Assembly (NCBI GenBank): GCA_044869275.1
Contig: JBIOXB010000142.1
Span: 1 to 47,214 of the forward strand
DNA: 47,214 nucleotides
Reading direction: 5' to 3'
DNA from: a bacterium
Lineage (GTDB): Bacteria > Zhuqueibacterota > Zhuqueibacteria > Zhuqueibacterales > Zhuqueibacteraceae
The notes beneath the pieces were generated by a model that was given only the letters and a program-made list of their open reading frames with translations, did no database searches and had not been told where the DNA came from. The number at the start of each line of letters is the position of its first letter. The first letter of the stretch is position 1. Below are positions 104 to 31,323 of the stretch, piece by piece. The position numbers and the translations under genes are program-made.

Positions 104-187
104 TGTTTTTATGAATCTATGTACTAGGTCGTTTGATTCGAACGCTGGTGAATGAGAAAAATCCTGGTGGCGAAAAGGAGAAAGACC

Positions 188-3451: not shown

Positions 3452-3564
3452 ATAGGACATTGGTGAGGGCATGTAAGAGTTTGATTCATTCTTTTTTGCG
3501 GTATATATCTTGGGAGCAACAATATATTGGCCGGATTGCGGAAGCGAGTATTCCCGCCCGATGC

Positions 3565-3637
3565 GGGACCCGGTGCGGGAAAACTGCATGTTGGGAACTG
3601 TGCGGAGGGCACGGGAAACCCGTGTCCCTACCGCGAC
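3565..3637 (+). ncRNA. Group II intron 3' end remnant (domains V-VI), no RT ORF
   Basis: DV-like CCCGG-TGCGG-GAAAA-CTGCA-TG-TTGGG, then DVI GCGG-AGGGCACGG-GAAAC-CCGTGTCCCT-A-CCGC-GAC with bulged A at 3630 (position -8) and AC terminus; catalytic triad degenerate. Confidence 0.75.
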
Positions 3638-3699
3638 GCCGGACATCCGCACCGGACAGCGCACGGCGAAGGCAATGAGGGGAATTTGGTGTACTGCTC

Positions 3700-4281: not shown

Positions 4282-4285
4282 TACA

Positions 4286-4319
4286 AATCCGCACTAGTGG
4301 CCGCCATTCCCACCGCGAC
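4286..4319 (+). other. Second, internally deleted group II intron 3' end remnant
   Basis: AAATCCGCAC (DV loop/3' arm-like) followed by GGCCGCCATTCCCACCGCGAC, matching the ...CCTACCGCGAC terminus at 3627-3637. Confidence 0.45.
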
Positions 4320-4452
4320 GAGCGCATTTCTCTTTCGGCCACGATACGCGGCCCCAGAGGTAGTATGACCGATCCAAATCAAGTGCTTATGGCCAATCTC
4401 ATTGAGGCGCTTCAGCAGTTGCAGCGTTATATTGTTGATCAGGAGAACGAAA

Positions 4453-4959
4453 ATGGAACCCACATCGAGTGCAATCGGGCTCATAGTGATCGTGACGCTC
4501 TACATCGCCATTGGTGTTATGTCGGCCGCTGGATCGGTCTACATAGCCAAGTCAATTTTTAGCGCAAAGGCAGAGCAGATATTTTTCGCGTTGTTTCTTA
4601 TCCCAATCGCCGGCTTTTATCTGGCCTTCACGGCTTACTTTGGAGATAAGGATGCGTGGCAGTTAGAAGCGACGGCAGTGGCAGTGTTTACTGTTTTCGG
4701 CCTAGCGGGAGTCCGAGTTTCATTTGCTCTCATCGTCGGATACCTGCTACATGGCCTATGGGACGCGGTCCACGAGTTTAGTGCTCATGCGGGCGGCTCT
4801 CTGTTGGGCACTCGGCAGATCACGTCCGTGCCACTAGCCTACGGCTTCTTTTGCGCCACATATGACTTTCTCATGGCAACATATTTCTACACTCGCCGCA
4901 AGCAATGGCGCGCGGCCTGGAGCGCGATAGAAGCAGTGACGCCGGTGCGCGAGGCATGA
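4453..4959 (+). CDS. Small multi-pass membrane protein (DUF6010-like)
   Basis: AGGAG RBS at 4441-4445 before ATG 4453; several TM helices; GYLLHGLWDAVH and VP..YG.FCATYD motifs. Confidence 0.7.
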   Translation: MEPTSSAIGLIVIVTLYIAIGVMSAAGSVYIAKSIFSAKAEQIFFALFLIPIAGFYLAFTAYFGDKDAWQLEATAVAVFTVFGLAGVRVSFALIVGYLLHGLWDAVHEFSAHAGGSLLGTRQITSVPLAYGFFCATYDFLMATYFYTRRKQWRAAWSAIEAVTPVREA

Positions 4960-5294: not shown

Positions 5295-7385
5295 ATGAAG
5301 AATCTCTTGAACGCAGCAAAGCAAATCTCCAAAGTCCGAGAGTGGCAACACCAACTGCTCTTTCTTGCCACCGGGCTGTTGCTCTTCGAGACATTGACGG
5401 GCCTTTCAATTTACTTGTTGCCGTTCAGCGTTTCGAATCAAACCATGGTTTTGTTGCACACCGTTGCCGGCCTCGTTTTTATCCTTCCCTATGCCTGGTA
5501 TCAACTCCGGCACTGGCTCATCTACCGTGAGCCGTCGATGACCCATGTCAAGCTGACCGGATATTTCTCGCTGGTCGCAACTCTGGTGGCGACGATCTCA
5601 GGCCTGGTGTTGACCTATCAGGCTCTCTTTCAAACCAAGATTTCTTCCGGCTGGGATTGGGCGCATATCATTTCGACTTTTGCGCTGATTGCCGCGCTGT
5701 TGCCTCACATTCTTGTCATTGTATGGCGCAATTTCAAAGCACGTCAGTTGGAAACGATGCAGCCGATGATGGCCGCACAAAAACAATTTGGCTGGAGGAC
5801 GCTGTTCACGGTGGCGGCGCTGTTTGCAGCGGCTGCAATTTTTGTGTACGCCTATGAGCCGGCCAGGCTGAACAACAAATTCCCTGACGGCTACAGTTAT
5901 CTCTACGGCCCGGCGCGGCCATTTGCTCCGAGCCTGGCGCGCACAACCACCAACGGCGCCTTTGACGCGCGTTCCCTGGGCGGCTCACAAAGCTGCGGCA
6001 CTTCGGGATGCCACGAGCAGATCGTCAAAGAATGGGAAGTCAGCGCGCATCGTTACGCCGCCCTCGATCCCGCGTTTCAAGCAGTGCAAAAAGTGATGGG
6101 CGAGCAAAACGGCGCGGAATCGACGCGCTATTGCGGCGGCTGCCATGATCCCATCTCTCTTTTCTCCGGCACGAAAAATATTTTCGTCGATAATTTGACC
6201 GGCCTCACCGGCTATCAGGAAGGCATCTCGTGCATCGTCTGTCATGCCATCAAAGAAACCGACGTCAAAGGCAATGCCAACTACGTGATCGCGCAGCCCC
6301 GGCGCTACATGTTCGAATTGAGCGAAGGAAACACGGCGCGCTTCTTTCGAGATTTCCTGATCCGCGCGTATCCCAAGTATCACATCGAGAGCCTGCAGCA
6401 CCGTCTCTTCAAGAGTCCGGAGTTTTGCGCGGCGTGTCACAAGCAGTTCATCGATCAGGAGATCAACAAAGTGGGATGGGTGCAACTGCAAAATCAGTAC
6501 GACAACTGGCGCAAGAGCCGGTGGAGTCACCCCGGCGATCCGGCTAAAACTATCGAGTGCCGTGAATGCCACATGCCGTTGCAGAATTCGCACGACCCGT
6601 CCAGCGGTGATGCACTCGATTACAATCGCACCGCCAAAGATGACAAGCATCGCAGCCATCGCTTCGTGGCCGCGAATCAATTCATCCCCAGCTTGATGAA
6701 GTTGCCCGGCGCCGCTGTACAAGATTCACTCACTGAAAAATGGCTGCGCGGTGAATATGAGATTCCCGAAATCGCGCATAAATGGAAAGCCGGACCTGCC
6801 GTGCCTATCGAGCTGATCGTGCCGGAAAAAGTCGTGCCCGGACAAGAGGTCAAGATTCAAGCCGTCATTACCAACAACAAGGTTGGCCACGATTTTCCCA
6901 CCGGCCCGTTGGACATCATTCAATCCTGGGTGGAATTGACGGTGACGGACCAGGAAGGCAACGTGCTTTTCAAGTCCGGCACGACGGATGAACGGCATTT
7001 CATCAAGCCCGGATCGTTCATTTTCAAAGCCGAGCCGGTTGACCAATACGGCAATCTCATCGATCGCCATAATCTTTGGGAAATGGTCGGTGTGCGTTAT
7101 CGCCGCTCGCTGTTTCCGGGATTCTCGGACAAGGCCGAATTCAGTTTTCCGTGCCCCACCAGCTCATCCCTCATGAGCCGGGAGCTTCCCGCCAAGGAAG
7201 AGTTTCGCATGAAAGCGCCAGGCCGTCGCGTGACGGAATTGCAGGTGACCGCGAAGCTCATGTACCGCAAGATCGACCAATTCTTGCTGAATTTCCTGAT
7301 GGGCGAAGGTTCCGGCCTCACCACGCCCGTATCCGTCATTTCTGAAGATCAGAAAAAAATTGCTGTCGAGACGGCGACGTGGTGA
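5295..7385 (+). CDS. Membrane-anchored multiheme c-type cytochrome (c554-like core) with His-bearing N-terminal TM bundle
   Basis: CGGCH, CIVCH, CAACH, CRECH plus atypical CGTSGCH; about 5 N-terminal TM helices with His residues; C-terminal beta-rich domain with VGHDFPTG. Confidence 0.88.
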   Translation: MKNLLNAAKQISKVREWQHQLLFLATGLLLFETLTGLSIYLLPFSVSNQTMVLLHTVAGLVFILPYAWYQLRHWLIYREPSMTHVKLTGYFSLVATLVATISGLVLTYQALFQTKISSGWDWAHIISTFALIAALLPHILVIVWRNFKARQLETMQPMMAAQKQFGWRTLFTVAALFAAAAIFVYAYEPARLNNKFPDGYSYLYGPARPFAPSLARTTTNGAFDARSLGGSQSCGTSGCHEQIVKEWEVSAHRYAALDPAFQAVQKVMGEQNGAESTRYCGGCHDPISLFSGTKNIFVDNLTGLTGYQEGISCIVCHAIKETDVKGNANYVIAQPRRYMFELSEGNTARFFRDFLIRAYPKYHIESLQHRLFKSPEFCAACHKQFIDQEINKVGWVQLQNQYDNWRKSRWSHPGDPAKTIECRECHMPLQNSHDPSSGDALDYNRTAKDDKHRSHRFVAANQFIPSLMKLPGAAVQDSLTEKWLRGEYEIPEIAHKWKAGPAVPIELIVPEKVVPGQEVKIQAVITNNKVGHDFPTGPLDIIQSWVELTVTDQEGNVLFKSGTTDERHFIKPGSFIFKAEPVDQYGNLIDRHNLWEMVGVRYRRSLFPGFSDKAEFSFPCPTSSSLMSRELPAKEEFRMKAPGRRVTELQVTAKLMYRKIDQFLLNFLMGEGSGLTTPVSVISEDQKKIAVETATW

Positions 7386-7404
7386 TGTCAATAAGGAAAA
7401 GCAG

Positions 7405-7484
7405 CACGCCAAGGCGCTAAGCCGCAAAGTGATCGCAAAGAAAAAACGCTTTGCGGATCCTTTGCGTCTCTGCGCCGTGGCGTG
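7405..7484. repeat. Palindromic REP-like element (CGCAAAG/CTTTGCG family)
   Basis: CACGCCAAGGCGC...CGCAAAG...CTTTGCG...GCGCCGTGGCGTG inverted arms; related copies at 39640-39815. Confidence 0.7.
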
Positions 7485-7512
7485 ATATTTTTGAATTTTG
7501 CCACGACAGCCT

Positions 7513-9318
7513 ATGTTCAAAACCCTCCCTCGTCGAAAACGCCTGCTGCTCATTACCGCAAGCACGGCCCTGCTGTTCTTGATTATTGTCGCCTGCGCGA
7601 TCTGGTTGCTTTTCAATCCCCAGGCGCACTATCAGCCCGGGGAGAAAATTGCAGGACTCACTGCCGAGCTGACTCGCTCCATTCCACCTGATTATCCCAA
7701 AATCAAATTTGTGAATGCGACTGAGGAAGCCGGCATCACCTTCCAGCATTTTTATGGCAAGCGCTCGATCCAGCTTCCCGAGGACATGGGCTCCGGCGCG
7801 GCGTGGGGCGACTATGACAACGACGGCTGGTTGGATTTATTCATCGCCAATCAGGCCGGCCCGATTTCCATGACGCCGGAAGAAGTCAAGAACTCTCCCG
7901 CCAAGTGCGCTTTATATCACAACAACGGCGACGGCACGTTCACCGAGATCAGCGCCCAGGCCGGCGTCGATTTCCGCGGCTGTTGCATGGCTGCCGCATG
8001 GGGCGATTACAACAACGACGGCTGGATCGACTTGTTTGTTTCCTGTTATGGTGAAAATGTGTTTTATCAAAACAATGGCGGCGGCAGTTTCACCGACAAA
8101 ACCAAAGCAACACGTCTCGGCGGCTTCAAAGGTTTTTGGGAAAGCGCCGCGTGGACAGATTTCAATCGCGACGGCTTTCTCGATCTCTACGTTTGCGGTT
8201 ACGTGAAGCACGTTTATCAGGAGACGCAACAGATCTCTTTGCAGTACGACGTCGAAGTTCCCGCCAGCATCAATCCTTCGTCCTTCGAGCCGGAACGCAA
8301 TCTGCTCTATCGCAACAACGGCAACGGCGCGTTTACGGAGATGGCGGAAAAGGCCGGCGTTGCCAACCCCCAAGGCCGCAGCCTGTCCGCCGCGTGGTGC
8401 GATTTTGACGAGGACGGCTGGCTGGATTTGTACGTGGCCAACGACGTCTCCGATAACGTGATGTTGCGCAATTTGGGAAACGAAAAATTCGAGGACATCA
8501 GCCACGCCGCCTGGGTGGCGGATTATCGCGGCGCGATGGGTTTGGGCGTGGGTGATTGGGACGGCGACCAGGATATGGATATTTTCATCACGCACTGGAT
8601 TGCCCAAGAAAATGCGCTTTACAGCAACCTGCATGCTCAACTGGCGGAACTGCACACCTCGTCCAAGGGACTTCGTTTCATGGATGAAGCCGACCGTTTC
8701 GGGCTCGGACAAATCGCGCTGGATTTCATCGGTTGGGGAACTTCTTTCTTCGATTACAACAATGACGGCAAATTGGATTTGTTCGTCGCCAATGGCAGCA
8801 CGTTTCAACAAAAGGAGAAGCCCTGGCTCTTGGAGCCGATGTCGTACCAGCTTTTCTGGAATCGCGGCGCCAAAGCGGGCTTCTATGAAATCGGCGCTGT
8901 GAGCGGTGAAATTTTTGAGCGCAAATACGTCGGGCGCGGCGCCGCATTTGGGGATTACGACAATGATGGCGACGTCGATATTTTTGTCGTGGAAAACGGC
9001 GGCCCGGGCTTGCTGCTGCGAAACGATGGTGGCAATCAAGGGCATTGGTTGGCGGTTCATCTCGAGGGCAGAAAGAGCAATCGCCAGGGCATCGGGGCCA
9101 GGTTGCGAGTGGTTGCGGGAGAGAGCGCGCAAATCCGTCAAGTCGGCGCGCAGGCTTCCTACTGCTCGCAAAATAGCTTGCTTGAGCATTTCGGTTTGGG
9201 AAGCACGGCTAAAGTGGATACTCTGGAAATCATTTGGCCCAGCGGCCGTCGCCAGACTTTACAAAACCTCGCTGCCGATCAAACCGTGAAAGTGATTGAA
9301 GGAGAAAGTGGTCTTTAA
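7513..9318 (+). CDS. CRTAC1-family protein (FG-GAP/VCBS repeats + ASPIC/UnbV domain), N-terminal TM anchor
   Basis: Repeated GDYDNDGxxDL motifs, EDMGSG start, C-terminal SY.SQ...HFGLG...WPSG; start could be TTG 7498. Confidence 0.9.
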   Translation: MFKTLPRRKRLLLITASTALLFLIIVACAIWLLFNPQAHYQPGEKIAGLTAELTRSIPPDYPKIKFVNATEEAGITFQHFYGKRSIQLPEDMGSGAAWGDYDNDGWLDLFIANQAGPISMTPEEVKNSPAKCALYHNNGDGTFTEISAQAGVDFRGCCMAAAWGDYNNDGWIDLFVSCYGENVFYQNNGGGSFTDKTKATRLGGFKGFWESAAWTDFNRDGFLDLYVCGYVKHVYQETQQISLQYDVEVPASINPSSFEPERNLLYRNNGNGAFTEMAEKAGVANPQGRSLSAAWCDFDEDGWLDLYVANDVSDNVMLRNLGNEKFEDISHAAWVADYRGAMGLGVGDWDGDQDMDIFITHWIAQENALYSNLHAQLAELHTSSKGLRFMDEADRFGLGQIALDFIGWGTSFFDYNNDGKLDLFVANGSTFQQKEKPWLLEPMSYQLFWNRGAKAGFYEIGAVSGEIFERKYVGRGAAFGDYDNDGDVDIFVVENGGPGLLLRNDGGNQGHWLAVHLEGRKSNRQGIGARLRVVAGESAQIRQVGAQASYCSQNSLLEHFGLGSTAKVDTLEIIWPSGRRQTLQNLAADQTVKVIEGESGL

Positions 9319-9414
9319 GTCCATTAGGAGTGAAATCGGTGCTTTTTTAGCAAAGAAAAATCTGAAAGCTTTTAGGCAGAATGATTTGATTGTGGTCGAT
9401 TGCGTTGAGTATAT

Positions 9415-10287
9415 ATGAAAAAAACTCTCTTCTTCTCTCTCTTTACGCTTTTCGTTCTTCTCATCACCATCGCGTTTCTGAAAAACCGCTCTTTTCAATA
9501 TCCCTCTGCAAGTGACACCGATGCCAAAACCCTGGCAGAAAAAGAGCGCATCACGCGCTTTTGGAAAGTCTACCGCGAAGCGACTGAGCATCGCATGGCC
9601 GGGAGAACAAGAGAAGCGGCAGAGGGCTATCGCAAGGCCTTGACGCTGAACGGTGAGCACGAAGATGCTCTGTACTATTTGGGCAACATGTGTATGGAGT
9701 TGGGCGAATACCAAGCCGCCGCAGAATCGTGGCAGCGTTTGGCGCAAGTCAATCCGCACAGCGCACGAGCGCACCTCCAGTTGGGCGATCTCCATCTCAA
9801 TTTCGAGCAAAAAGAGTTTTTCAATCTCAGTCGCGCGGAGGAAGAATTTCAACATGCGCTGCAGATCAATCAGGAAGAAACCGGCCCGACGCTGCGGTTG
9901 GGACACGTCGCGCTCATTCGCGGCGATCTGCCGAAGGCGCAAAATTATTTTAACGCTGTCATCGTCACCAATTTCAAAAGCGTTGAAGCCCATTTTCTTA
10001 ACGGCTACGTCGCCTGGAAAACCGGGAATGTATCGACGGCAGAAACAATGTTCAGTGAGGCGGTCAAATTTTCCCAAGCCGACAAGCCCGTGCAAGGCAT
10101 ATTGAGCGAAGGCGACACCAAAACCGGACGCGCCCACGTTGCCCCGCCATCATCAAAGCGCCAGACGCTGTTTCAGGATTGCTGCAGTGATTTAGCCGAT
10201 CTGAATGAATCAAGTATATCAGAACAGATGCGGGCAAGATACGAGAAGCTGTCGACCTTGCTGAAGCAAATGAGAAAAAGTCAATGA
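9415..10287 (+). CDS. TPR protein with N-terminal TM/signal segment
   Basis: TPR-like helices (A.EGYRKAL.LN, ALYYLG, AHLQLG, AHFLNG). Confidence 0.85.
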   Translation: MKKTLFFSLFTLFVLLITIAFLKNRSFQYPSASDTDAKTLAEKERITRFWKVYREATEHRMAGRTREAAEGYRKALTLNGEHEDALYYLGNMCMELGEYQAAAESWQRLAQVNPHSARAHLQLGDLHLNFEQKEFFNLSRAEEEFQHALQINQEETGPTLRLGHVALIRGDLPKAQNYFNAVIVTNFKSVEAHFLNGYVAWKTGNVSTAETMFSEAVKFSQADKPVQGILSEGDTKTGRAHVAPPSSKRQTLFQDCCSDLADLNESSISEQMRARYEKLSTLLKQMRKSQ

Positions 10288-13200
10288 CGAGCCTGCGAGT
10301 TCTTGTTTTCATAAATGTATTGGCTCTGCTTGCCAATGGCTGTGAAAGGCGAAAAGTCTTAGACAAGCAAACGCTGACGCAAATCATTGCCGCGCGCACC
10401 CTGGGTTTGGCGTATTTGGAGGAGAACCAGCTCCAAGACGCCGAGACCGAGTTCCGCAAAGTCATTGCGCTCGCGCCGAAGGAAGCATTGGGGTACGCCA
10501 ATCTCGGCCTAATTTACTTTCGAGAAAGCCAATACCCCGAGGCCGAGGGCTGGATTAAAAAAGCGTTGGCAATCTCACCGGACAATCCCGATATTCGCTT
10601 GTTGTTGGCCAATGTGTACGAGATGGCCAACCGCGAGAACGAGGCACAGCAGGAGCTGGAGCAGACGCTCAAAACCTCTCCCGATCATACCAGAACGCTC
10701 TACAATCTCACCGCGCTTTATCTCAGATCCAACCAGGAAAACACCACACGACGCGCCGAATCGCTTTTGAATAAACTGGTGCTGTTGGCACCGGCAAATA
10801 TCGTCGTTCGCCTTCAACTCATCGAAACCCTGTTGGGCAATGGCAAGACCGGCGAAGCAGTGAAGCATCTTGAGGAACTACGCCAGCAAATACCGGAATT
10901 GTCCGCCGATGCGGTCGAGTTTTATGATAAGGCTTTGACCGGCGCGCGGGCAAATCAAGCCGAAGCCGCGTTCATGCCGGTGCGAATTTTTCACAATCTG
11001 CTCAAATCGATTCCGCTTTATCAGGCCGGTATTCAGGAGCTGCGCGGTCCCAGCGGCCCGTTGATCGGTATTCCCATTTTCAACTTTAGCCAAAATATTT
11101 CGACGCAACTGCAAAAGCAAAGAGCAGTGCCGGCTGCCATGCGTTTCACGGAGGTGACTTCCGCCGTTGGCTTGCAGGTGATGAATAGCAGTGCGAGTGA
11201 ATCTGCGCCGGCCTCAGAGCCTGGCACGCATATCGCCGTGGCGGATTTCGACGGCGACGGTGATCAGGATCTTTACGTCGGCAATTGGGAACCGGACAAA
11301 AACCGAAGCCGACCTTTTCTCTTTAAGAATGATTCTGGAAAATTTATTGAAATGTCTGTTGCCGCGGGCATCACGCATGTCGCCAAAGCGACGGCGGCGA
11401 TTTTTTCGGACTACGACAATGACGGCCATCTCGATCTGTATATCATCAACGACGGCCCGAATATCTTGTATCGCAATCTTGGCAACAGCAAATTTGGTGA
11501 CGTGACTAAAATTGCCGGAGTCGGTGACGGCGACTTCGGCTATGCGGCGCGTTTCGTCGATTTGGATCACGAAGGCGATTTGGATTTGTTTCTCGCCAAC
11601 GCCAGCGCCAACCGGCTCTATCGCAACAACGGCGACGGAGCTTTCACGGAGTTGGCCGGGAAAATGAACCTCGCCGGCAAAAACCTCAAAAGCCGTGAGA
11701 TTGAATTTGGCGACTTTGACGATGACGGCGACCTCGATCTTTTCGTCGCCAATGAAAACGTCGGCAATATTCTCTACACCAATTTGCGGCAAGGCCAGTT
11801 TCAAAACGTCACTGCCGTAAGCGGCCTCGCCGGCAGCAGCGGGGCGGTTGCAGTCGCTGCTGGAGATTATGATAACAACGGCGGTTTGGATTTATTGGTC
11901 ACCGGCCGCGACCCTGGACGCTTCGACTTGTACCGCAATCAGGGCCAAGGCAAATTTGAAAAGGATGTGGGCTCTCAAGAAATGATGGAAGCTCTCCGCG
12001 CGGTGATCGGCCTGGACGCCGCGTTCTTTGACTTTGACAACGATGGTTTCCTCGATCTTTTGATCGCCGGCAAAGCCGCCGGCCGCGGCGTTTGGCTCTT
12101 TCACAATGACGGCGCGGGCAAATTTCAAGATGCTTCTGCGCTTTTGCCGGAGAATTCTGCTGCGGCCCGAAGAATCGCGCCCGCGGACTACGATAACGAC
12201 GGCGACGTGGATATTTTCGTTGCCGGTTTGAATGGTGGCGTGCGCCTTTGGCGTAATGACGGCGGCAACGCCAATCATTATCTCAACGTGCAATTGGTCG
12301 GCCTCCGCACCGGTAGCAGCAAAAATAGTTACTTTGGCGTCGGCGCAAAGGTGGAAGTCGCGGCCGGCAGTCTTTATCAAATGCGCGTGGTCGCAGAGCC
12401 GGTATCGCATTTTGGCCTCGGCCAATTTTCAAAGGCCGAGGTGGTGCGCGTGCAGTGGCCTAATGGTGTTCCTCAAAGTTCTTTCCACCTCGCCAGCGAT
12501 CAAGATATTGTCGAAAAGCAGACACTGAAAGGCTCCTGCCCCTTTCTTTACACCTGGGACGGCGAAAAGTATGTTTTTGCCACAGACATTTTTTGGCGCA
12601 GCGCCATCGGCATGCCGCTGGGCATCATGGCCGGCGCGACGACCTATGCGTTTTCGAGCTCCACGCAAGAGTATCTGAAAATTCCCGGCAATTTGTTGAA
12701 AGCAAAAGAAGGCGTGTATACGCTTCAAATTACCGAAGAGCTCTGGGAAACGCCTTACCTGGATGAAGTCAAGCTCATCGCAATAGATCACCCTGACACG
12801 GTGGACATTTATATTGATGAAAAATTTGCCGGGCCGCCGTATCCGCCGCTGCAGATCCACACCGTCGCCGCAAAGCATTTGCCCGTCTCTGCCGCCGACG
12901 AGCGCGGCAACGATCTTCTTTCATTCATCAGCCGTCATGACAGCCTCCACGTCTCGAATCTTCGACCGACCAGATACCAAGGCATCACGGAGATGCACGA
13001 TCTCATTCTTGATTTGGGCGATCCCGCACGCGCTGATAAAATTGTTCTGTTTTTGAACGGCTGGCTCTTTCCGACCGATGCCAGCATCAATGTGGCGATC
13101 TCGCAATCCGGCCAAACCAAAGTGATCTCGCCATTTTTGCAGGTGATGAATCGCCGCGGCCAATGGCAGACGGTTATTGAAAACTTGGGGTTCCCGATGG

Positions 13201-13955
13201 GCAAGAACAAAATGGTTATCGTCGATCTCACTGACAAATTTTTGATCCGTGACTATCGGGTGCGAATCCGCACCAACATGCAAATCTATTGGGGCCATAT
13301 TTTCTTCGCGATCGACCCGGCGCCAGCCCCTGTCCGCAAAACCGTTCTCCAGCCGATTTCTACGAATCTTCATTATCGCGGCTTCTCAAAAGTGTATCGC
13401 AAAGGCGGGCCTCATGGCCCCCATTGGTTTGATTACCAGGAGGTAGCAACGGAGCCGAAGTGGCGAGATCTGGAAGGATTTTATACCCGTTACGGCGACG
13501 TGCTTCCTTTGCTATTGGAAGCGGACGACAAGTACGTGATCTTCAACTCGGGTGACGAGGTGACCGTGGGGTTTGATGCCTCTGCGACTCTGCCGCCGGA
13601 GCCTGGATGGGTTCGTGACTTTCTCATCTATTGCGACGGCTGGCTCAAAGACGGTGATCTCAATACCGCACATGGCAAAACCGTGGAGCCGCTGCCGTTT
13701 CATGGCATGTCGCGCTATCCTTATGGAGAGGACGAGTCTTATCCCGAGGATGAAGCGCATCAGGAATATCTCAGAACATACAATACGAGGAAGGTGTCGC
13801 AGGAGAAATTCAAGACGTGGATGTTGGACTCGTCAAGGGCGTTAAATTCACTCGTTCATTCATTCAAGAACCCAGGATATGAAAAAGTCAAAAAATCGAA
13901 AAAAATACTTGACAATGTAAAAAATTTCGATAGCTTTAATCGCAACTTAAAATAA
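10284..13955 (+). CDS. Lipoprotein: TPR + FG-GAP repeats + ASPIC/UnbV + uncharacterised C-terminal domain
   Basis: Lipobox LANG-C; TPRs; many DxDxDGxxD repeats; HFGLG..V.WPNG; KGSCP followed by about 450-aa domain; ATGA overlap with upstream stop. Confidence 0.9.
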   Translation: MTSLRVLVFINVLALLANGCERRKVLDKQTLTQIIAARTLGLAYLEENQLQDAETEFRKVIALAPKEALGYANLGLIYFRESQYPEAEGWIKKALAISPDNPDIRLLLANVYEMANRENEAQQELEQTLKTSPDHTRTLYNLTALYLRSNQENTTRRAESLLNKLVLLAPANIVVRLQLIETLLGNGKTGEAVKHLEELRQQIPELSADAVEFYDKALTGARANQAEAAFMPVRIFHNLLKSIPLYQAGIQELRGPSGPLIGIPIFNFSQNISTQLQKQRAVPAAMRFTEVTSAVGLQVMNSSASESAPASEPGTHIAVADFDGDGDQDLYVGNWEPDKNRSRPFLFKNDSGKFIEMSVAAGITHVAKATAAIFSDYDNDGHLDLYIINDGPNILYRNLGNSKFGDVTKIAGVGDGDFGYAARFVDLDHEGDLDLFLANASANRLYRNNGDGAFTELAGKMNLAGKNLKSREIEFGDFDDDGDLDLFVANENVGNILYTNLRQGQFQNVTAVSGLAGSSGAVAVAAGDYDNNGGLDLLVTGRDPGRFDLYRNQGQGKFEKDVGSQEMMEALRAVIGLDAAFFDFDNDGFLDLLIAGKAAGRGVWLFHNDGAGKFQDASALLPENSAAARRIAPADYDNDGDVDIFVAGLNGGVRLWRNDGGNANHYLNVQLVGLRTGSSKNSYFGVGAKVEVAAGSLYQMRVVAEPVSHFGLGQFSKAEVVRVQWPNGVPQSSFHLASDQDIVEKQTLKGSCPFLYTWDGEKYVFATDIFWRSAIGMPLGIMAGATTYAFSSSTQEYLKIPGNLLKAKEGVYTLQITEELWETPYLDEVKLIAIDHPDTVDIYIDEKFAGPPYPPLQIHTVAAKHLPVSAADERGNDLLSFISRHDSLHVSNLRPTRYQGITEMHDLILDLGDPARADKIVLFLNGWLFPTDASINVAISQSGQTKVISPFLQVMNRRGQWQTVIENLGFPMGKNKMVIVDLTDKFLIRDYRVRIRTNMQIYWGHIFFAIDPAPAPVRKTVLQPISTNLHYRGFSKVYRKGGPHGPHWFDYQEVATEPKWRDLEGFYTRYGDVLPLLLEADDKYVIFNSGDEVTVGFDASATLPPEPGWVRDFLIYCDGWLKDGDLNTAHGKTVEPLPFHGMSRYPYGEDESYPEDEAHQEYLRTYNTRKVSQEKFKTWMLDSSRALNSLVHSFKNPGYEKVKKSKKILDNVKNFDSFNRNLK

Positions 13956-13972
13956 GTAAACGAAAGATTTCG
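13909..13972 (+). promoter_or_regulatory. Promoter and candidate operator for the DeoR/AgaR operon
   Basis: Perfect -35 TTGACA (13909-13914), 16 bp, TAGCTT; palindrome CGAAA-GA-TTTCG at 13961-13972 just before ATG 13981. Confidence 0.6.
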
Positions 13973-13980
13973 TAAGTAAG

Positions 13981-14745
13981 ATGGCGAGTTCGGTTGAGCG
14001 TCAAGCCTTGATTCTAAAGAATCTTCATTCCAATGGCAAAGTCGTGGTCACTGAACTGAGTGATCTCTTGCAGGTCTCGGAAGTCACTGTTCGCAATGAT
14101 CTCGAGCAATTAAGCCAAAAGGGGATGCTCGTGCGCACGCACGGGGGCGCGGTCAAATCGGATCTGCTCGTTCATGATATTCCGCTCTATGAAAAAGCCA
14201 AAAAGCATCAGAATGAAAAGGAGCGCATCGCTGAGGTAGCCGCGGCCATGGTCGACGACGGAGAAGTGATTACTATCGACTCCGGTTCGACCACGTGGGA
14301 GCTGGCGAAACGCCTCAAGTCCAAGCGCAATCTGACGATCATCACCAATTCCCTGCCCATTGCGGGAGAGTTGAGCACGGTTCCGGGCCTGGAGGTTATC
14401 GTCAGCGGCGGCTCAGTGCGACGCGCGTCGCTTTCAATTGTGGGGCCGCACACCGAAGAATTGTTGCGCGAACATTTTGCCAGCAAGCTTTTTCTGGGAG
14501 TGGATGCTTTTGATGTGCATTCCGGATTGACCACGCCCAATTTGCATGAAGCGCGTGTCAACCGGGTGATGATCGACATGGCGCGTGAGGTCATTGTCGT
14601 GGCGGATGCCTCGAAGTTCGGCCGGCGCAGCATGTGTCTGATTTGCGAAACCAAACGCATTCATAAAGTCGTAACTGATAGGAGCATTCCGAAAACGGAT
14701 TTGGAGCATCTGCAAGCAGTTGGTGTGGAAGTCATCATGGCGTGA
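13981..14745 (+). CDS. agaR: DeoR/GlpR family transcriptional regulator, AgaR-like
   Basis: HTH VSEVTVRNDL..L, RTHGGA, IDSGSTT, ITNS, VADASKFG; context of SIS and kbaZ genes. Confidence 0.85.
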   Translation: MASSVERQALILKNLHSNGKVVVTELSDLLQVSEVTVRNDLEQLSQKGMLVRTHGGAVKSDLLVHDIPLYEKAKKHQNEKERIAEVAAAMVDDGEVITIDSGSTTWELAKRLKSKRNLTIITNSLPIAGELSTVPGLEVIVSGGSVRRASLSIVGPHTEELLREHFASKLFLGVDAFDVHSGLTTPNLHEARVNRVMIDMAREVIVVADASKFGRRSMCLICETKRIHKVVTDRSIPKTDLEHLQAVGVEVIMA

Positions 14746-14775
14746 GTCGAAATTCGGTTTTTCGATGGGAGCGTT

Positions 14776-15819
14776 ATGTCTTCCGATACCTTACGTGAGA
14801 TTCTGAGCCAGCCCGAAACTTGGCAGAAGACCTTCCTGCGCGCAGAGCAGGAACGTTGGCAGCTACCTCCGGAGGAGCACAAAAGAAGCTCGCTGCTCTT
14901 CGTGGGCTGTGGAACTTCATTCTACCTCGCGCAAAGCGCCGCCACGGCCGTTCAACGCCTGTCGGGCTGTCCTAGCCGAGCCATTCCCGCTTCAGAAGTT
15001 TTCCTTTCTTCCCTGACTGCCATCACCCCCTCTGAAAAACCACTGGCTGTGGCCATCTCTCGTTCCGGTACCACCACAGAAACCTTGTGGGCAGTTGCAC
15101 TCCTGCGTCAGAAACTGGGCATACCGGTAGTTGGTCTCACCTGTAATGGCGAAAGCCCTCTGGCCCGTGAAAGTAATTGGTCCATGATTTTGCCAGAGGC
15201 ACGGGAAAAGAGCGTGGTCATGACACGATCTTTCACTGCACAACTGCTTGCGCTCTTGTTGGCGTCGGCGCGGTCGGCTTCCAAACAGGGCTGGTTGGAA
15301 CAGATGACGTCGCTTTCCAGCCGCGGCGAAAAAGTGCTTGCGGAGCAAACGGCTGCCATGCAGACTCTGGGCAATAATTCCACGTTTGATCATTTTGTCT
15401 TTTTGGGCCAGGGCATCTTCTATGGGGCCGCCAACGAAGCCATGCTCAAAATGAAGGAAATGTCATTGAGTTATTCCGAAGCCTATCACACGCTGGAATA
15501 CCGCCATGGCCCCATGAGCCTCGCAGGAAAAAACAGTCTCATAACCCTCTTCATCAGCGATGCGGGCCGCGAGCATGAGACGCGGGTGCTGGTGGACATG
15601 AAAAAACTCGGCGCGCACACCGTGGTTTTTTGTGCTCACGCCGATGGTACCATGGCTGCGCACGCCGATCACTTGATTGAATTGGGCGACGAAATACCGG
15701 AAGAGGGGCGGCTTCTGTTGGCGATCTCCCTGCTGCAATTGCTCGGTTATCATCGTGCGCTTGCCAAGAATTTAAATCCCGATGCGCCGCGAAACTTGTC
15801 GCAGGTGGTGACACTTTGA
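14776..15819 (+). CDS. Stand-alone double-SIS hexosamine-6-phosphate deaminase/isomerase (AgaS/GlmD-like)
   Basis: EILSQP, GCGTS, AISRSGTTTET, LKMKE, EYRHGP, PRNL C-terminus; no glutaminase domain. Confidence 0.85.
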   Translation: MSSDTLREILSQPETWQKTFLRAEQERWQLPPEEHKRSSLLFVGCGTSFYLAQSAATAVQRLSGCPSRAIPASEVFLSSLTAITPSEKPLAVAISRSGTTTETLWAVALLRQKLGIPVVGLTCNGESPLARESNWSMILPEAREKSVVMTRSFTAQLLALLLASARSASKQGWLEQMTSLSSRGEKVLAEQTAAMQTLGNNSTFDHFVFLGQGIFYGAANEAMLKMKEMSLSYSEAYHTLEYRHGPMSLAGKNSLITLFISDAGREHETRVLVDMKKLGAHTVVFCAHADGTMAAHADHLIELGDEIPEEGRLLLAISLLQLLGYHRALAKNLNPDAPRNLSQVVTL

Positions 15820-16766
15820 AGCAACTGGACGTCGTCGTCGTGGGCGAGCTCAATGTCGATTTGATCTTGGATCAAATTCAGGGATTGCCGGAGCTTGGCA
15901 AGGAGAAAATTGCGGGCGCTATGACGTTGACCCTGGGCAGCTCCTCAGCGATTTTTGCCAGCAATCTTTCCGCTTTGGGCGCACGCGCCGGGTTCATCGG
16001 CAAGCTCGGTGAAGATGCCTTCGGTGATTTGGTCATTTCCAGCTTGCAGCGCCGCGGCGTGGCAGTTGAACGGATCATCGTGCAGCAAAAAATCGGCACG
16101 GGCGCGACCGTAGTCATCAATGACGCGCGGGATCGCGCCATGCTAACTTACAAAGGCGCGATGGACAATTTGCGGCTGGAGGACATCGACTGGGAGTATG
16201 CGCAAACGGCGCGGCATCTGCATCTCTCTTCTTACTTTTTGCAAAGCGGGCTCAAGCCGGATTGCGCCAGACTTTTTAAGCATGCGAAAGCACTGGGGTT
16301 ATCAACTTCTCTCGATACGAATTGGGATCCTGACGAACAGTGGGATCGCGCCTTGTTCGAGGTTTTGCCGCACGTGGACGTCTTTCTGCCCAATGAAGAG
16401 GAAGCACTGCGCATCGCGCGTGACGACACGATTGAAGCGGCCTTGGAAACCTTGGCGCAGCATGCCAACACGGTCGTCATCAAGCGCGGCAAAAACGGGG
16501 CCGTTGCCAAGCAACGCGGTACCACCATAAAAGCCAAAGGATTTGAGGTAAAACCAGTGGATGCCGTGGGTGCAGGAGACAGCTTTGACGCGGGGTTCGT
16601 TTTTAAATGGCTGCGCGGCGGGGATTTGCGCCAATGCTTGGAATTTGGCAACATGTGCGGCGCATTATCGGTTACCCAAGCCGGCGGTACAGCAGCCTTC
16701 TCGAATCCAGATCAGATTCTTCGGTATTTCAAGGACTATTTCGGTTACCGCGAGGACTCGTTGTGA
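15816..16766 (+). CDS. PfkB/ribokinase family sugar kinase
   Basis: VVGELNVD, PNEEEA, DAVGAGDSF signature; TTGA overlap with upstream stop. Confidence 0.92.
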   Translation: MKQLDVVVVGELNVDLILDQIQGLPELGKEKIAGAMTLTLGSSSAIFASNLSALGARAGFIGKLGEDAFGDLVISSLQRRGVAVERIIVQQKIGTGATVVINDARDRAMLTYKGAMDNLRLEDIDWEYAQTARHLHLSSYFLQSGLKPDCARLFKHAKALGLSTSLDTNWDPDEQWDRALFEVLPHVDVFLPNEEEALRIARDDTIEAALETLAQHANTVVIKRGKNGAVAKQRGTTIKAKGFEVKPVDAVGAGDSFDAGFVFKWLRGGDLRQCLEFGNMCGALSVTQAGGTAAFSNPDQILRYFKDYFGYREDSL

Positions 16767-16813
16767 TGGTTTAAATTCACCGGATGAGTTGGTCCATCAA
16801 AACTGATCCTTGT

Positions 16814-18145
16814 ATGCACAATCCGCTCTTGCAGCTTGTGAACGCGCACAAGCAGAGGGGGATCGGCCTGTGTTCGATTTGTTCAGCCCATCATTTTGTG
16901 CTGGAAGCGGCCATGTTGCAGGCTCGGGCCGACCGCGCGCCGGTGCTGATCGAGGCCACTTCGAACCAAGTGAACCAATTCGGCGGATATACGGGCATGA
17001 CGCCGAAAGCTTTTGTAGCATACGCGCAAGAAATCGCGGCAAAAGTGAAGCTCCCCTTCCAGCAAGTGATATTGGGAGGAGATCACTTGGGACCCCAGGC
17101 GTGGCGAGAAGAGAGCGCGAAGATCGCCATGACCCATGCCCGCGAGCAGGTTCGGGCTTACGTTGCCGCGGGCTTCAAAAAAATTCATCTTGATACCAGC
17201 ATGCGTTGCGCCGATGATCCTTGCGATGAACAAGGCGGACTGCCCATGGAACTGGCCGTTGAAAGAGCCGCTCAGCTCTGCAAGGTTTGTGAAGCTGCAC
17301 ACGCTGATCGCCCTTCCGATTCCCCTCCACCGGTTTACGTCATCGGCACCGAAGTTCCGCCTCCGGGCGGCGCCAAGGAAAAACTCGAGCGCATTCTTCC
17401 CACCCGCGCGCAGGACGCCAGACAAACGATCGTAGCCACACAACAGGCTTTTTTTACTTTGAACTTGCACGAGGCATGGCAAAGGGTCATCGCCGTGGTG
17501 GTTCAACCCGGCGTCGAGTTCGGCGACGATACCGTCATTCCTTATCGCCGCCGCGAAGCCGCCGGCCTGGCGAAATTCCTCGAGCACTACGATCATTTGG
17601 TTTATGAGGCCCATTCCACCGACTATCAAAGGCCGGAGGCCTTGCGCGAATTGGTGGAAGATCATTTCGCCATTCTCAAAGTCGGACCGTGGCTGACGTT
17701 TGCCTTGCGCGAAGCCGCCTTCGCGCTGGCGCGCATGGAAGAAGAGTGGCTTGCGCCTAAAAAGGCGGTCAAGCTTTCACGGCTGCACGAGGTTTTAGAG
17801 CAAGTCATGTGCGCCAAGCCGCAGCACTGGCACAAGCACTATCATGGCGACGAGGTTGAACTCGCCTTCGCGCGTAAATACAGCTACAGCGATCGTATTC
17901 GATATTATTGGAACGAGCCGGAGGTCGTGACCTCCCTGCAGATACTGGTGGCGAATTTTTCCGCGAACCCTGCGCCGCCTGGGTTGTTGAGCCAGTATCT
18001 GCCGGTGCAATATGCCGCGGTGCAAGAGGGCCGTATCATGAACAAGCCGGAAGACTTGATTCATCACAAGATTCAAGAGGTATTGAAGATTTACCATGAA
18101 GCCACAAGAAACCGCGAGTGGGCGACGAACGGGAGAGAAATGTGA
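16814..18145 (+). CDS. kbaZ: KbaZ/GatZ-family protein (probable tagatose-6-phosphate 4-epimerase)
   Basis: SICSAH, IEATSNQVNQFGGYTGMTP, LGGDHLGP, VVVQPGVEF, YEAHSTDYQ, LKVGPWLTFALRE, YSYSDRIRYYW. Confidence 0.93.
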   Translation: MHNPLLQLVNAHKQRGIGLCSICSAHHFVLEAAMLQARADRAPVLIEATSNQVNQFGGYTGMTPKAFVAYAQEIAAKVKLPFQQVILGGDHLGPQAWREESAKIAMTHAREQVRAYVAAGFKKIHLDTSMRCADDPCDEQGGLPMELAVERAAQLCKVCEAAHADRPSDSPPPVYVIGTEVPPPGGAKEKLERILPTRAQDARQTIVATQQAFFTLNLHEAWQRVIAVVVQPGVEFGDDTVIPYRRREAAGLAKFLEHYDHLVYEAHSTDYQRPEALRELVEDHFAILKVGPWLTFALREAAFALARMEEEWLAPKKAVKLSRLHEVLEQVMCAKPQHWHKHYHGDEVELAFARKYSYSDRIRYYWNEPEVVTSLQILVANFSANPAPPGLLSQYLPVQYAAVQEGRIMNKPEDLIHHKIQEVLKIYHEATRNREWATNGREM

Positions 18146-28474: not shown

Positions 28475-29521
28475 ATGTCACGCACTACTCGATTATGCCT
28501 ATGCTTGATTGTCGCCCTCGGCAATGCTCTTCTTGCCCAAAGCAAAGGCGGCAGATGGCAATGCGAGAATAATGGCCTGGATACCGCCGGCTGGGACGTT
28601 GTCGAAGACGACGGGGCGTTGCACGGCCCGGCGAGTTATGGCGATATCGCGCCGTTGCGGGAAGGCAATTCCTATCTATCTTTGGAAGCCGGCGATGCTC
28701 ATGATTTCTTGAAAATCGCGGACAGCGCTGATCTTGATTTCGACCACGAAAGCGTCGGGATTTCGGCCTGGATTTATCCCATCGCTTTCACGCGCGTGCA
28801 TTTCGTTCTCGTCAAAGGCGATCAGTTTCCCACGCCTAAAACCACGAATTACTGCCTGCGTATTTCCGAAAGCAAGAACCTGGAGTTTCTCATTCGCGAT
28901 ACCAACGATCGTGCGCAACGCGTGACCTCGAGCTTCACCATTCCACTTAACCAATGGACCTTCGTGGCCGCATTTTATGATTTTCAGGCGCGGAAGGTCT
29001 ACCTGTGGAACGATCCGGTTGCGCCGGCCGTCGATACTTTGCAATTCGATCAACCTCTTTTTTCAAATGATTCGCCCCTGACCATCGGGACGTGGTACCG
29101 GAGCGATCCGGCCTCTCCCAGCATCAACGATTTTGAAGGCCGCATTGATGATGTTCGTCTCAGCGGAAGATGGCAGGATTTGTTTCCGCCAACGACCGCA
29201 GTGGCTTCGCCCGCCGATCCCGCGGCTGCGACATTTGCGGCTGAACTTCACGTCTTTCCCAATCCCGCTGTTGCCGGCGGCCGGCGCAACCACGGCGCCG
29301 TGCACTTCACCTCGCCATTTGCCCAGGTCAAGTCCATTGCCATTTACAATATCCTGGGCGAGATCGTTTTCGAAACTTCCACCTATCATCCTGCTCAACT
29401 CTTCCATTTTGAGTGGAATCTCCGCGATCAAAACGGCCACTTGCTCCACACGGGCATTTACTGGGTTAGCATAAGCAACGGGCGCAGTTATTTGACGAAG
29501 AAGTTCTTTGTCATCAGATGA
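28475..29521 (+). CDS. LamG/concanavalin-like domain protein with T9SS-type C-terminal domain
   Basis: ISAWIYP, LNQWTFVA, LTIG, FEGRIDDVRL; CTD VFPNP...IYNILGE...W...GIY...TKKFFVIR. Confidence 0.82.
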   Translation: MSRTTRLCLCLIVALGNALLAQSKGGRWQCENNGLDTAGWDVVEDDGALHGPASYGDIAPLREGNSYLSLEAGDAHDFLKIADSADLDFDHESVGISAWIYPIAFTRVHFVLVKGDQFPTPKTTNYCLRISESKNLEFLIRDTNDRAQRVTSSFTIPLNQWTFVAAFYDFQARKVYLWNDPVAPAVDTLQFDQPLFSNDSPLTIGTWYRSDPASPSINDFEGRIDDVRLSGRWQDLFPPTTAVASPADPAAATFAAELHVFPNPAVAGGRRNHGAVHFTSPFAQVKSIAIYNILGEIVFETSTYHPAQLFHFEWNLRDQNGHLLHTGIYWVSISNGRSYLTKKFFVIR

Positions 29522-31263
29522 AAGCCCAAGAGACATGCTGCCTGTGCGCAGGGCTCGTGTGGCTGCTTTCGCTTGCGGCTTGCGACTCTTCCTGCTCCGA
29601 TCGCAAGTTGGCTTCGGCAGCTCTTGGTACCGATTACTTCACGGAAATTACAGATCAAGTCAAACTGAATTTTGTACACGAAGCCGGCGTTGACGGCAGC
29701 TATTACATGCCGGAAAGCCTCGGCTCGGGGGGCGCATTTCTGGATTACGACAACGATGGCGATCTCGACATATATTTGATCAACAGCGGCTACCATGGTG
29801 CGCACCGAGAGCAGCATCCACCTGCAACGAATCGCTTGTTCCGCCAGGAAGCCGAGGGCTCATTCCTCGAGGTCACCGCGGCTTCCGGCCTGGGCGAGAC
29901 CGGTTACGGCATGGGCTGCGCCATTGGCGACTTTGACAACGACGGCCACCCCGACGTTTACGTGACCAACTATGGCCCTGATGTGCTCTACCGGAACAAT
30001 GGCAATGGTACCTTTACAAATGTCACCCAAGCTGCTGGCATCGACAACTCGCATTGGGCTTGCTCGGCGATTTTTTTCGATTACGATCGCGACGGTTTTC
30101 TCGATCTCTACGTCACCAACTACCTGGCTTATGACAGCACGGTGGTGTGCACCGATCGAGCCGGCCGCCCAGATTATTGCGGACCAACTGGTTTTCCCGC
30201 GGTTCCGGACAAGTTGTATCACAACAACGGCAATGGCACTTTTGCCGATGTTTCGCTGGTCTCGAGAATTGCGAGCGTGGCTTCATATGGCTTGGGTGTG
30301 GTAAGCGCCGATTTCAACGACGATGGCTGGCCCGATGTTTTTGTCGCCAACGATCGCGAACCGAATTTTTTGTGGATCAACCAAAAGAACGGCACTTTCA
30401 AAGATGAAGCCTTGCCACGAGGCGCGGCGGTCAATGCGCTCGGTTTGGCGGCGGCAAACATGGGCGTGGCTGTGGGCGATATCGATAATGATGAAGACCT
30501 GGATTTGTTCATTACGCATTTGCGTGAGGAGGGCAACACCTTTTATCGCAATATCGGAGGCGGGATGTTTCAGGATGACAGCTCACCGGCGCGCCTGGCC
30601 GGTATCAGCCTGCCTTACACCGGTTTTGGCACTGGATTCTTCGATTATGATCATGATGGCGACCTCGACCTTGCCGTGGTGAATGGCCGGGTGACGCGCG
30701 GCCCGCTGCTCAAGAATACCGAGACCCCCGACTATTGGGATTATTATGCGGAGCCGGATTTCATGTTTGAAAACGAGGGCGCGGGAAAATTTCGCGATGC
30801 CAGCGCACCGGCGGCGTCCTTCTGTGGACAAATCGAAAACGGCCGCGGCCTGGCGTTCGGCGACGTGGATAATGACGGCGACCTAGATTTGCTCGTGACG
30901 AATGAAGGAGGCTGCGCCCGTTTGTATCGCAACGACGTCCCCAACAAGGGCCACTGGCTCCTGGTGCGCGCGATGGATCCCGCTCTTAAGCGCGACGCCT
31001 TCGGGGCGAAAATTTTTGTTGAAGCCAATGGCGCTCGCGTGTTGCGCTGCGTTTCGCCGGGCTACAGTTATCTCAACAGTAATGAACCGCGTGTGCATTT
31101 TGGATTGGGCGCGGCAGCAACGGTGGAAAAAATTCTGGTGCAATGGCCGGACGGTGCCGTCGAGATGTTTCCCGGCGCCGCCGCAGATCAGATAATCACT
31201 CTGCAGAAGGGGTTGGGGAAACGACTGGGAGGTTTGCCTGCGCGAAACGCCAGTGCATTGTAG
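29518..31263 (+). CDS. CRTAC1-family protein (FG-GAP + ASPIC/UnbV), probable lipoprotein
   Basis: LAA-C; PESLGSGGAFLDYDNDG, DYCGP, YSYLNSNEPRVHFGLG...WPDG. Confidence 0.9.
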   Translation: MKAQETCCLCAGLVWLLSLAACDSSCSDRKLASAALGTDYFTEITDQVKLNFVHEAGVDGSYYMPESLGSGGAFLDYDNDGDLDIYLINSGYHGAHREQHPPATNRLFRQEAEGSFLEVTAASGLGETGYGMGCAIGDFDNDGHPDVYVTNYGPDVLYRNNGNGTFTNVTQAAGIDNSHWACSAIFFDYDRDGFLDLYVTNYLAYDSTVVCTDRAGRPDYCGPTGFPAVPDKLYHNNGNGTFADVSLVSRIASVASYGLGVVSADFNDDGWPDVFVANDREPNFLWINQKNGTFKDEALPRGAAVNALGLAAANMGVAVGDIDNDEDLDLFITHLREEGNTFYRNIGGGMFQDDSSPARLAGISLPYTGFGTGFFDYDHDGDLDLAVVNGRVTRGPLLKNTETPDYWDYYAEPDFMFENEGAGKFRDASAPAASFCGQIENGRGLAFGDVDNDGDLDLLVTNEGGCARLYRNDVPNKGHWLLVRAMDPALKRDAFGAKIFVEANGARVLRCVSPGYSYLNSNEPRVHFGLGAAATVEKILVQWPDGAVEMFPGAAADQIITLQKGLGKRLGGLPARNASAL

Positions 31264-31323
31264 TCTTCAAATCTGTCAGAAAACCTAAACTGTCATCCCG
31301 TGGGATCTTGATTGACGCGATCA

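Follow-up and report, generated by a model that had tools for sequence, protein, structure and literature searches.

ExtKL of Geobacter, also named MccSep, is described as a polysulfide reductase in which four bis-histidine hemes are combined with a histidine/cysteine-ligated heme 2 and a catalytic selenocysteine (bioRxiv 10.1101/2025.11.18.688581). According to the same report its active site lies between the heme domain and an immunoglobulin-like (Ig-like) domain, the exchanges C239H or U325C cost the enzyme most of its activity, and open heme sites usually bind nitrite, sulfite or hydroxylamine. The cytochrome of PDB entry 5ZE8 has been grouped with Geobacter ExtKL as the PHC family (PMC11976967). 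CRTAC1 genes are reported from clusters of non-anammox hydrazine-synthase-like enzymes (PMC12758564), and for the large bacterial family of CRTAC1/UnbV proteins no function was found in the literature searched. Here, we analyze a stretch of 47,214 nucleotides from a bacterium of the Zhuqueibacterota (contig JBIOXB010000142.1 of assembly GCA_044869275.1, the whole stretch being called the window), which at positions 5295..13955 carries genes for a membrane-bound multiheme cytochrome, a CRTAC1-type propeller protein, a TPR protein and a large TPR-CRTAC1 lipoprotein. The first three of these genes (cytochrome, CRTAC1 and TPR) form a conserved unit that very probably encodes a periplasmic oxidoreductase linked to quinone, in which CRTAC1 is a dedicated subunit.

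The window was checked as open reading frames (ORFs) on the forward strand, with domains assigned by Pfam and NCBIfam cut-offs, and all four co-oriented genes that an earlier note on this DNA had placed next to a sugar regulator were confirmed. The cytochrome gene (5295-7385, + strand, 696 residues, Pfam Cytochrome_C554) is followed by that of the CRTAC1-type partner (+ strand; Pfam FG-GAP and UnbV_ASPIC), an ORF of 606 residues at 7498-9318 inside which the alignments of orthologues begin at the ATG at 7513, the feature being given as 7513..9318. This protein consists of an N-terminal membrane anchor, a conserved arm (residues 42-58 of the 606-residue ORF), an FG-GAP propeller and an UnbV/ASPIC domain. 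The TPR protein (9415-10287, + strand, 290 residues, Pfam TPR) has likewise one N-terminal anchor, and its gene overlaps by 4 bp with that of the accessory lipoprotein (10284-13955, + strand, 1223 residues, Pfam TPR, FG-GAP and UnbV_ASPIC), in which a signal sequence is found with a cysteine kept in the alignment consensus. FG-GAP repeats and UnbV_ASPIC are above the Pfam cut-off in both the 606- and the 1223-residue protein. The sugar regulator agaR starts at 13981, 25 bp past the lipoprotein gene, and scores above the NCBIfam cut-off for AgaR. The closest named homologues are labelled KSB1, Calditrichota and Marinimicrobia.

A scan for homologues with one genome per species gave at least 585 confirmed cytochrome stretches, the best 80 of which were used for locus counts and span, by their titles, about ten phyla. 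CRTAC1 (at least 40% identity) is observed downstream of the cytochrome in 77 of the 80 loci, and a TPR homologue in 68, being fused to CRTAC1 in 30. As no more than 312 bp (three loci without CRTAC1) or 2541 bp (12 loci without TPR) are available downstream, the missing partners are explained by contig ends. In the reverse search from CRTAC1, whose 26 loci include the window and some loci from the cytochrome search, 24 loci have the cytochrome immediately upstream; one of the two misses is a contig end and the other a truncated gene. Among 151 genomes of one acidobacterial order the cytochrome occurs in 13 and the CRTAC1 partner in 14 (at most 10 propeller candidates were scored per genome), and the 14th also has a cytochrome upstream. 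The TPR orthologue has gained a further FG-GAP propeller in several Acidobacteriota (loci L018, L022, L023, L038 and L055). No description of this module was found in the literature searched, an incomplete collection, nor did a term search of bioRxiv 10.64898/2026.05.27.727921 reveal one. For a link to the UnbV/UnbU genes of enediyne clusters, this literature likewise yielded no useful paper.

The cytochrome starts with five hydrophobic segments, which are followed by one CX4CH and four CxxCH motifs and by an Ig-like domain. Because of the five helices and the lack of a signal peptide the heme domain would face the periplasm. In an alignment of 201 orthologues, from which all conservation counts of the cytochrome were taken, the membrane histidines H55, H73, H124 and H138 are kept in 197-200 sequences, and four further histidines (252, 363, 455 and 532) are invariant (201/201). 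From these motifs seven hemes are predicted, two of type b and five of type c. The earlier note did not recognize that the membrane part is a di-heme-b-like domain: residues 10-167 are modelled as a four-helix bundle which, with its four conserved histidines, resembles the anchors of HydC/FdnI-type di-heme cytochromes b. They match the cytochrome b of hydrogenase-1 (4gd3; Z 9.7, root-mean-square deviation (rmsd) 3.9, 133 residues aligned), superoxide oxidase (5oc0; Z 9.1, rmsd 3.8, 149 aligned) and FdnI of formate dehydrogenase-N (1kqg; Z 8.8, rmsd 3.7, 150 aligned), and at an expectation value (E) of 0.001 no match to the Pfam b561 family was obtained. In the AlphaFold model the membrane and Ig-like parts are good and the heme part is poor, with a mean predicted local distance difference test (pLDDT) score of 65.

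The cytochrome belongs to the PHC fold family (5ZE8/ExtKL) and is not a MccSep, since the Cys/Sec positions of MccSep are replaced by the invariant residues L398/Q399 and P538. Its five heme-c motifs precede an Ig-like domain as in this family, and residues 224-689 match 5ZE8 over both domains (Z 10.1, rmsd 4.0, 266 aligned, the model of the heme domain being of low confidence). Moreover, 5ZE8 is the sole Foldseek match below E 0.001 (E 1.9e-6) and the sole sequence match in the PDB (E 2.7e-5, 15-18% identity). The active site of MccSep was mapped by eye in a single-sequence PDB search with a 441-residue single-domain relative as bridge, which aligns to 5ZE8 (E 4e-13) and to MccSep (E 1e-3). 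In this mapping P538 takes the place of U325, and L398 or Q399 that of C239; each of these three residues is found in 201/201 sequences. Neither selenocysteine nor cysteine is observed at the mapped U325 position, there is no in-frame UGA, and no cysteine occurs between heme motifs 4 and 5 that would correspond to the cysteine ligand of heme 2 in MccSep. The one cysteine outside the heme motifs is C620 (190/201). As the Cys/Sec pair is absent, the chemistry differs from that of MccSep. Near the mapped pocket segments the polar residues R278, Y279, Q399 and D540 are invariant. Four distal histidines serve five hemes, which suggests, as far as motifs can tell, an open site at heme 2.

Three further genes of the cytochrome family deserve mention. 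Two paralogues in genome G000 (C28:13523-16273 and C172:12337-15210) have a TPR tail fused to the cytochrome; the former sits in a CRTAC1 cluster, whereas the latter has Met at the position of Q399 and neighbours that resemble, judged by eye, genes for surface polysaccharides. A profile built from the TPR orthologues did not pick out these tails, so that we do not claim the same TPR for them. In genome G002 (contig C27, locus L086) the orthologue is broken by stop codons within its first 176 residues.

For the cytochrome domain (residues 200-692) and CRTAC1 (residues 41-513) a complex was predicted with ESMFold2 from own alignments. It scored 0.68 (0.68, 0.67 and 0.84 in the single runs) and the best control 0.01; the calibration mark is reached by 116 of 157 solved complexes and by 2 of 215 mismatched pairs, counts which are approximate because own alignments were used. 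The runs have at least 47% of contacts in common, with pLDDT values of at least 87 in the partner. On the propeller the predicted contact is formed by the N-terminal arm and the top loops, and on the cytochrome by residues 387-421, 524-528 and 581-613, which adjoin the mapped pocket in sequence. This prediction supports, without showing it, that the cytochrome binds the CRTAC1 propeller. PDB sequence searches with both proteins found no solved complex of this kind. The earlier note had inferred that the propellers bind or modify glycans, which is weakly supported: the conserved loops of the propeller are part of the predicted contact surface with the cytochrome, and so their conservation is explained without a glycan site.

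Within 300 bp upstream of the module a Crp/Fnr-type palindrome, TGTGAC-N4-GTCACA (TGTGA-N6-TCACA-type), is present in 11 of 76 loci, compared with a mean of 0.34 in 50 dinucleotide shuffles. With a matrix from ten operator sites, RIC genes were matched as well in four loci and NnrS in two, together with a hemerythrin gene and a PAS-LuxR/Rrf2 pair, and RIC lies directly upstream of the module in loci L037 and L077. The HcpR consensus sites reported in PMC1274295 match this motif, and dnrN (RIC) and nnrS are listed there as core members of nitrogen-oxide regulons. FNR-like sites were seen in four other loci, one of them beside a divergent Crp/Fnr gene; an NsrR-like motif occurred in none of the 76 loci. 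Three genomes of Acidobacteriota (G045, G060 and G062; L213-L232) contain 15 distinct exact operator sites, three of them at the cytochrome. Among the 12 remaining ones are those of RIC and NrfH (both above the NCBIfam cut-off), a NapH-like ferredoxin, an HAO-like cytochrome, a cytochrome with doubled CXXCH, hemerythrin, a Rieske protein, an AhbD-like radical SAM operon, an Fe-S flavoprotein, DUF2249, DUF6448 and an ECF sigma factor, and none precedes a glycan gene. Neighbouring genes were compared with control stretches of 20 kb from the same 36 genomes (three under 10 kb) by a hand count at E 1e-15; 296 of 300 cluster representatives were scanned, and in GC-rich genomes the ORF filter calls too few ORFs, near the module as well as in the controls. 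With this matched filter Nar, RIC, Rrf2 or P460 genes lie near the module in 6/36 loci versus 0/36 controls (eight loci with further locus annotation). This operator, the only regulatory signal found and one present in a minority of the loci, may belong to an HcpR/DNR-type nitrogen-oxide regulon and points to anoxia or nitrogen oxides.

We suggest the following mode of action. The cytochrome would take electrons from quinol via its two predicted b hemes and pass them on through the five c hemes to the probably open site at heme 2; it is predicted to bind the CRTAC1 propeller, with the TPR protein as putative scaffold. Under low oxygen or nitrosative stress the substrate to be reduced might be nitric oxide (NO), nitrite or hydroxylamine. 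Nitrogen oxides are more plausible substrates of the module than the sugars handled by the neighbouring genes. A quinol-linked nitrogen-oxide reductase, substrate included, is our best guess and a tentative one, ranking before an electron-transfer hub, a glycan-coupled enzyme, a sulfur-compound reductase and a sensor or scavenger, in this order.

Several observations weigh against this assignment. The heme domain is modelled poorly (pLDDT below 50 over residues 268-332 and 367-426), the mapping onto MccSep was made by eye through a relative that aligns at E 1e-3, and H592, M597 (200/201) or H452 (198/201) could fill the sixth position of heme 2. Residues of the predicted interface are barely more conserved than the rest (0.69 versus 0.66 and 0.79 versus 0.72). 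All 11 loci with the operator are from Acidobacteriota, some of them close kin, and 11 further loci of the same acidobacterial order yielded a single weak site. Upstream of the cytochrome in the window and in three relatives no operator is found (none with fewer than two mismatches), and with the queries used this genome gave no match to RIC, NrfH or HAO and one to NnrS alone. Furthermore, the Crp/Fnr site may respond to oxygen and not to NO, and the Rrf2 matches need not be NsrR. A last point, the abundance of glycan genes near the module, belongs to the glycan alternative discussed below.

Unlikely, though foremost among the alternatives, is a non-catalytic hub like CbcL, in which all five c hemes would be six-coordinate and the propeller and TPR protein would dock exchangeable redox partners of the periplasm or outer membrane. 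A cytochrome-b anchor joined to a multiheme domain is the design described for CbcL (PMC6295460), the cytochrome has spare invariant His and Met residues, and several different respiratory enzymes occur among the neighbours of the module. However, the closest characterized fold relative, MccSep, is reported to be an enzyme with its site between the heme and Ig-like domains, the invariant residues R278, Y279, Q399 and D540 surround the equivalent segments, and no porin-cytochrome partner recurs among the neighbours. That same kinship with 5ZE8 and MccSep, together with the extra cysteine C620, would fit a reductase of polysulfide or related sulfur compounds working with different catalytic residues, but since the residues essential in MccSep (C239 and U325) are replaced in 201/201 sequences and genes of sulfur respiration do not recur among the scanned neighbours, we consider it improbable. 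Still less probable is a redox sensor or a protective scavenger (e.g., of superoxide or peroxide) instead of a respiratory enzyme: the match of the membrane domain to superoxide oxidase is tied with those to the hydrogenase and formate dehydrogenase anchors, and although genes for PAS-LuxR and Crp/Fnr regulators precede the module in several loci, the cytochrome itself has no cytoplasmic output domain.

The earlier note proposed a glycan-coupled envelope complex, and the corresponding alternative, namely that the complex oxidizes imported sugars or transfers electrons from periplasmic sugar dehydrogenases to quinone, is about as unlikely as the hub and ranks behind it. What stood of that proposal is an uncharacterized redox complex in the periplasm, wired to the membrane and made up of cytochrome, CRTAC1 and TPR, for which gene linkage and the predicted contact speak; its glycan part is weakly supported. 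Genes for hydrolases, carbohydrate-binding modules (CBMs), TonB receptors and SusC/D make up 29 of 227 neighbouring ORFs versus 9 of 294 in the controls, an about fourfold difference, the per-ORF p value of which overstates the enrichment since ORFs cluster within loci. Counted by locus, the excess is not significant (15/36 versus 9/36, Fisher p 0.21; paired 8 versus 2, p 0.11), and 21 of the 36 loci are without any glycan gene. Co-occurrence with the cytochrome was found for CRTAC1 and not for the aga genes: homologues of AgaR, SIS and KbaZ are present in 0/80 cytochrome loci. KbaZ occurs in 8 of 31 genomes, and the four that were fetched all have the block from agaR to the TonB receptor, none with the module upstream; in G004 the four genes of the module are found past the opposite end of this glycan locus, at a distance of 6.6 kb. 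A cytochrome paralogue in G016 is located between a GMC dehydrogenase pair and 3-keto-glycoside-type genes, but the GMC query from there matched 0/80 loci. The jelly roll of the lipoprotein is CBM32/35-like and fits non-sugar domains equally well, agaR retains its own likely promoter, and the 12 other operator sites mentioned above are not those of glycan genes. Constant linkage to genes of TonB receptors and glycosidases, as in a component of a polysaccharide utilization locus, is thus not observed, and the glycan link of the module is a tendency and not a rule.

The locus of this G016 paralogue (L124, contig C217) has a GMC oxidoreductase and gluconate-2-dehydrogenase subunit 3 upstream of the cytochrome-TPR gene and, beyond it, CRTAC1, a truncated orthologue of the window CRTAC1, TPR, the lipoprotein, AP_endonuc_2, Gfo and a 3-keto-disaccharide hydrolase.

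The boundary between the lipoprotein gene and agaR points to a junction of two units, as the extended tail of the lipoprotein crosses a promoter-like stretch that is kept before agaR in G001. This likely promoter with inverted repeat (13909..13972, + strand; TTGACA at 13909-13914, repeat at 13961-13972) begins within the lipoprotein gene, in its extended 3' part. The lipoprotein continues for 54 residues beyond its final conserved motif, compared with a median of 15 for 112 homologues. In G001, which has no module there, both elements are likewise found before agaR. A scan for promoters and terminators gave counts near those of shuffles (14 versus 10.8 and 31 versus 24.1), and the inverted repeat, which is not significant alone (6 matches versus 4.2 expected), is retained because G001 conserves it. 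A look-up of RNA evidence for 5295-14745 listed none. The aga/glycan locus forms a unit of its own, for which a separate promoter is likely. It starts with agaR, SIS isomerase, PfkB kinase and KbaZ/GatZ (13981..18145, + strand; catabolism of hexosamine/tagatose), which lie outside the module, and extends over 13981-47214 with a TonB receptor that is accompanied not by SusD but by a GWxTD protein, an unannotated protein of 739 residues, a PorV-family barrel and a LamG protein with a tail for type IX secretion (T9SS), as well as GH36, GH18 and GHL10. This locus is kept end to end in G004 and over the fetched part in G001, G009 and G015. The further CRTAC1/TPR pair seen by the earlier note within it is indeed present (29518-31263 and 31312-32796, i.e. 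29518..32796, + strand) and accompanies this locus in relatives (84% and 82% in G004). This second CRTAC1 is 36% identical to the first and is without the N-terminal arm that is used in the predicted contact. On the other side of the module (152-4959) a tricorn-type protease, an isoprenylcysteine methyltransferase and DUF6010 are encoded, which rarely recur (tricorn in 2/80 loci, the methyltransferase in 1/80).

The 1223-residue lipoprotein is an exchangeable accessory outside the constant core and is common to hydrazine-synthase-like clusters. It adjoins the cytochrome in 6/80 loci, yet is found in 33 of 36 cytochrome-carrying genomes. Among relatives it lies at most about 10 kb from a cytochrome-family gene in six loci, counting the window; in four of these the cytochrome is a TPR-fused paralogue. 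In the 27 metagenome loci of at least 9 kb, out of 45, its neighbours include hydrazine-synthase-alpha-like genes (6) and TonB receptors (6) and in no case this cytochrome, and one short metagenome locus has both lipoprotein and cytochrome. A recurrent order (L132, L139, L141 and L150) comprises hydrazine synthase (HZS)-alpha-like and HZS-beta-gamma-like genes, periplasmic binding proteins, the lipoprotein, CRTAC1 and genes for 442 and 320 residues. Judged by eye, these last two look like the pair of asparagine-synthase-like and radical SAM genes that adjoins the G002 cytochrome fragment. Overlooked by the earlier note, the protein ends in a domain without Pfam match (12528..13838, + strand; residues 749-1185, 437 residues, unannotated), which is more conserved than the fused propeller and has an invariant cysteine at its start. 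It matched 6268 protein clusters, the best 120 at 59-94% identity, and its predicted fold is confident (pLDDT 93). Residues 110-265 of the domain form a galactose-binding-like jelly roll that matches CBM32/35 (5xnr, Z 8.9, rmsd 3.4, 121 aligned), the phage tail protein 9efk (Z 10.0) and the DOC domain (Z 8.5) about equally. For the whole domain there was no sequence match in the PDB and no Foldseek match below E 6e-4, and all Atlas matches are named 'hypothetical'; its outer part (1-95 and 270-437) gave no clear fold match, by which a new fold is not shown.

With this analysis a candidate binding partner and a predicted interface can be named for a bacterial CRTAC1/UnbV protein. The module represents a so far unstudied, putatively quinone-linked multiheme enzyme, which occurs in 585 or more stretches of genomes from lineages of soils, sediments and the sea. 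If nitrogen-oxide turnover is true, a class of nitrogen-cycle enzymes would be added that current marker sets would miss. A bolder generalization, which we regard as rather doubtful, is that bacterial CRTAC1/UnbV propellers are dedicated subunits of an unrecognized class of periplasmic heme enzymes: the propeller would cap a quinol-fed pentaheme domain whose open heme, in place of the Cys/Sec site of MccSep, would make it a new nitrogen-oxide reductase in hundreds of uncultured species from about ten phyla, with a CBM-like lipoprotein common to it and to the hydrazine-synthase-like enzymes.

Compared with the known systems, the hydrazine-synthase-like clusters described in PMC12758564 also have a CRTAC1-family gene beside genes of periplasmic heme enzymes, but their heme enzyme is unrelated and is described without a cytochrome-b anchor. 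The sole solved sequence relative of the propeller protein is human CRTAC1 (PDB 9ETN, E 3.3e-29); this match indicates neither a heme partner nor a membrane anchor, and the bacterial protein is longer by a conserved N-terminal arm, through which it is predicted to contact the cytochrome. CbcL of G. sulfurreducens (PMC6295460) likewise unites a HydC/FdnI-like di-heme b domain and a multiheme c domain in one polypeptide with a proposed link to the quinone pool. However, its nine heme motifs are reported to be N-terminal and its six helices C-terminal, and this layout of CbcL, MtrH and MtoC (multiheme part N-terminal, about six helices C-terminal) is reversed here, where five helices come first and five hemes of another fold follow. 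In the case of 5ZE8, the pentaheme cytochrome c552 of Thermochromatium tepidum, the match spans the heme and Ig-like domains; this protein has a cysteine at the position matching C239 of MccSep and is described as soluble and without clear function (PMC11976967). MccSep/ExtKL of Geobacter sulfurreducens (PDB 9WT8) shares with the cytochrome presented here five c hemes, four distal histidines, a C-terminal Ig-like domain and a GHxxPxG loop. Unlike MccSep, which is described as a soluble homotetramer, the cytochrome of the window lacks both the Cys ligand and the Sec in the mapped places, starts with a five-helix cytochrome-b-like anchor, has CX4CH as its first heme motif and would pair with a CRTAC1 propeller and a TPR protein.

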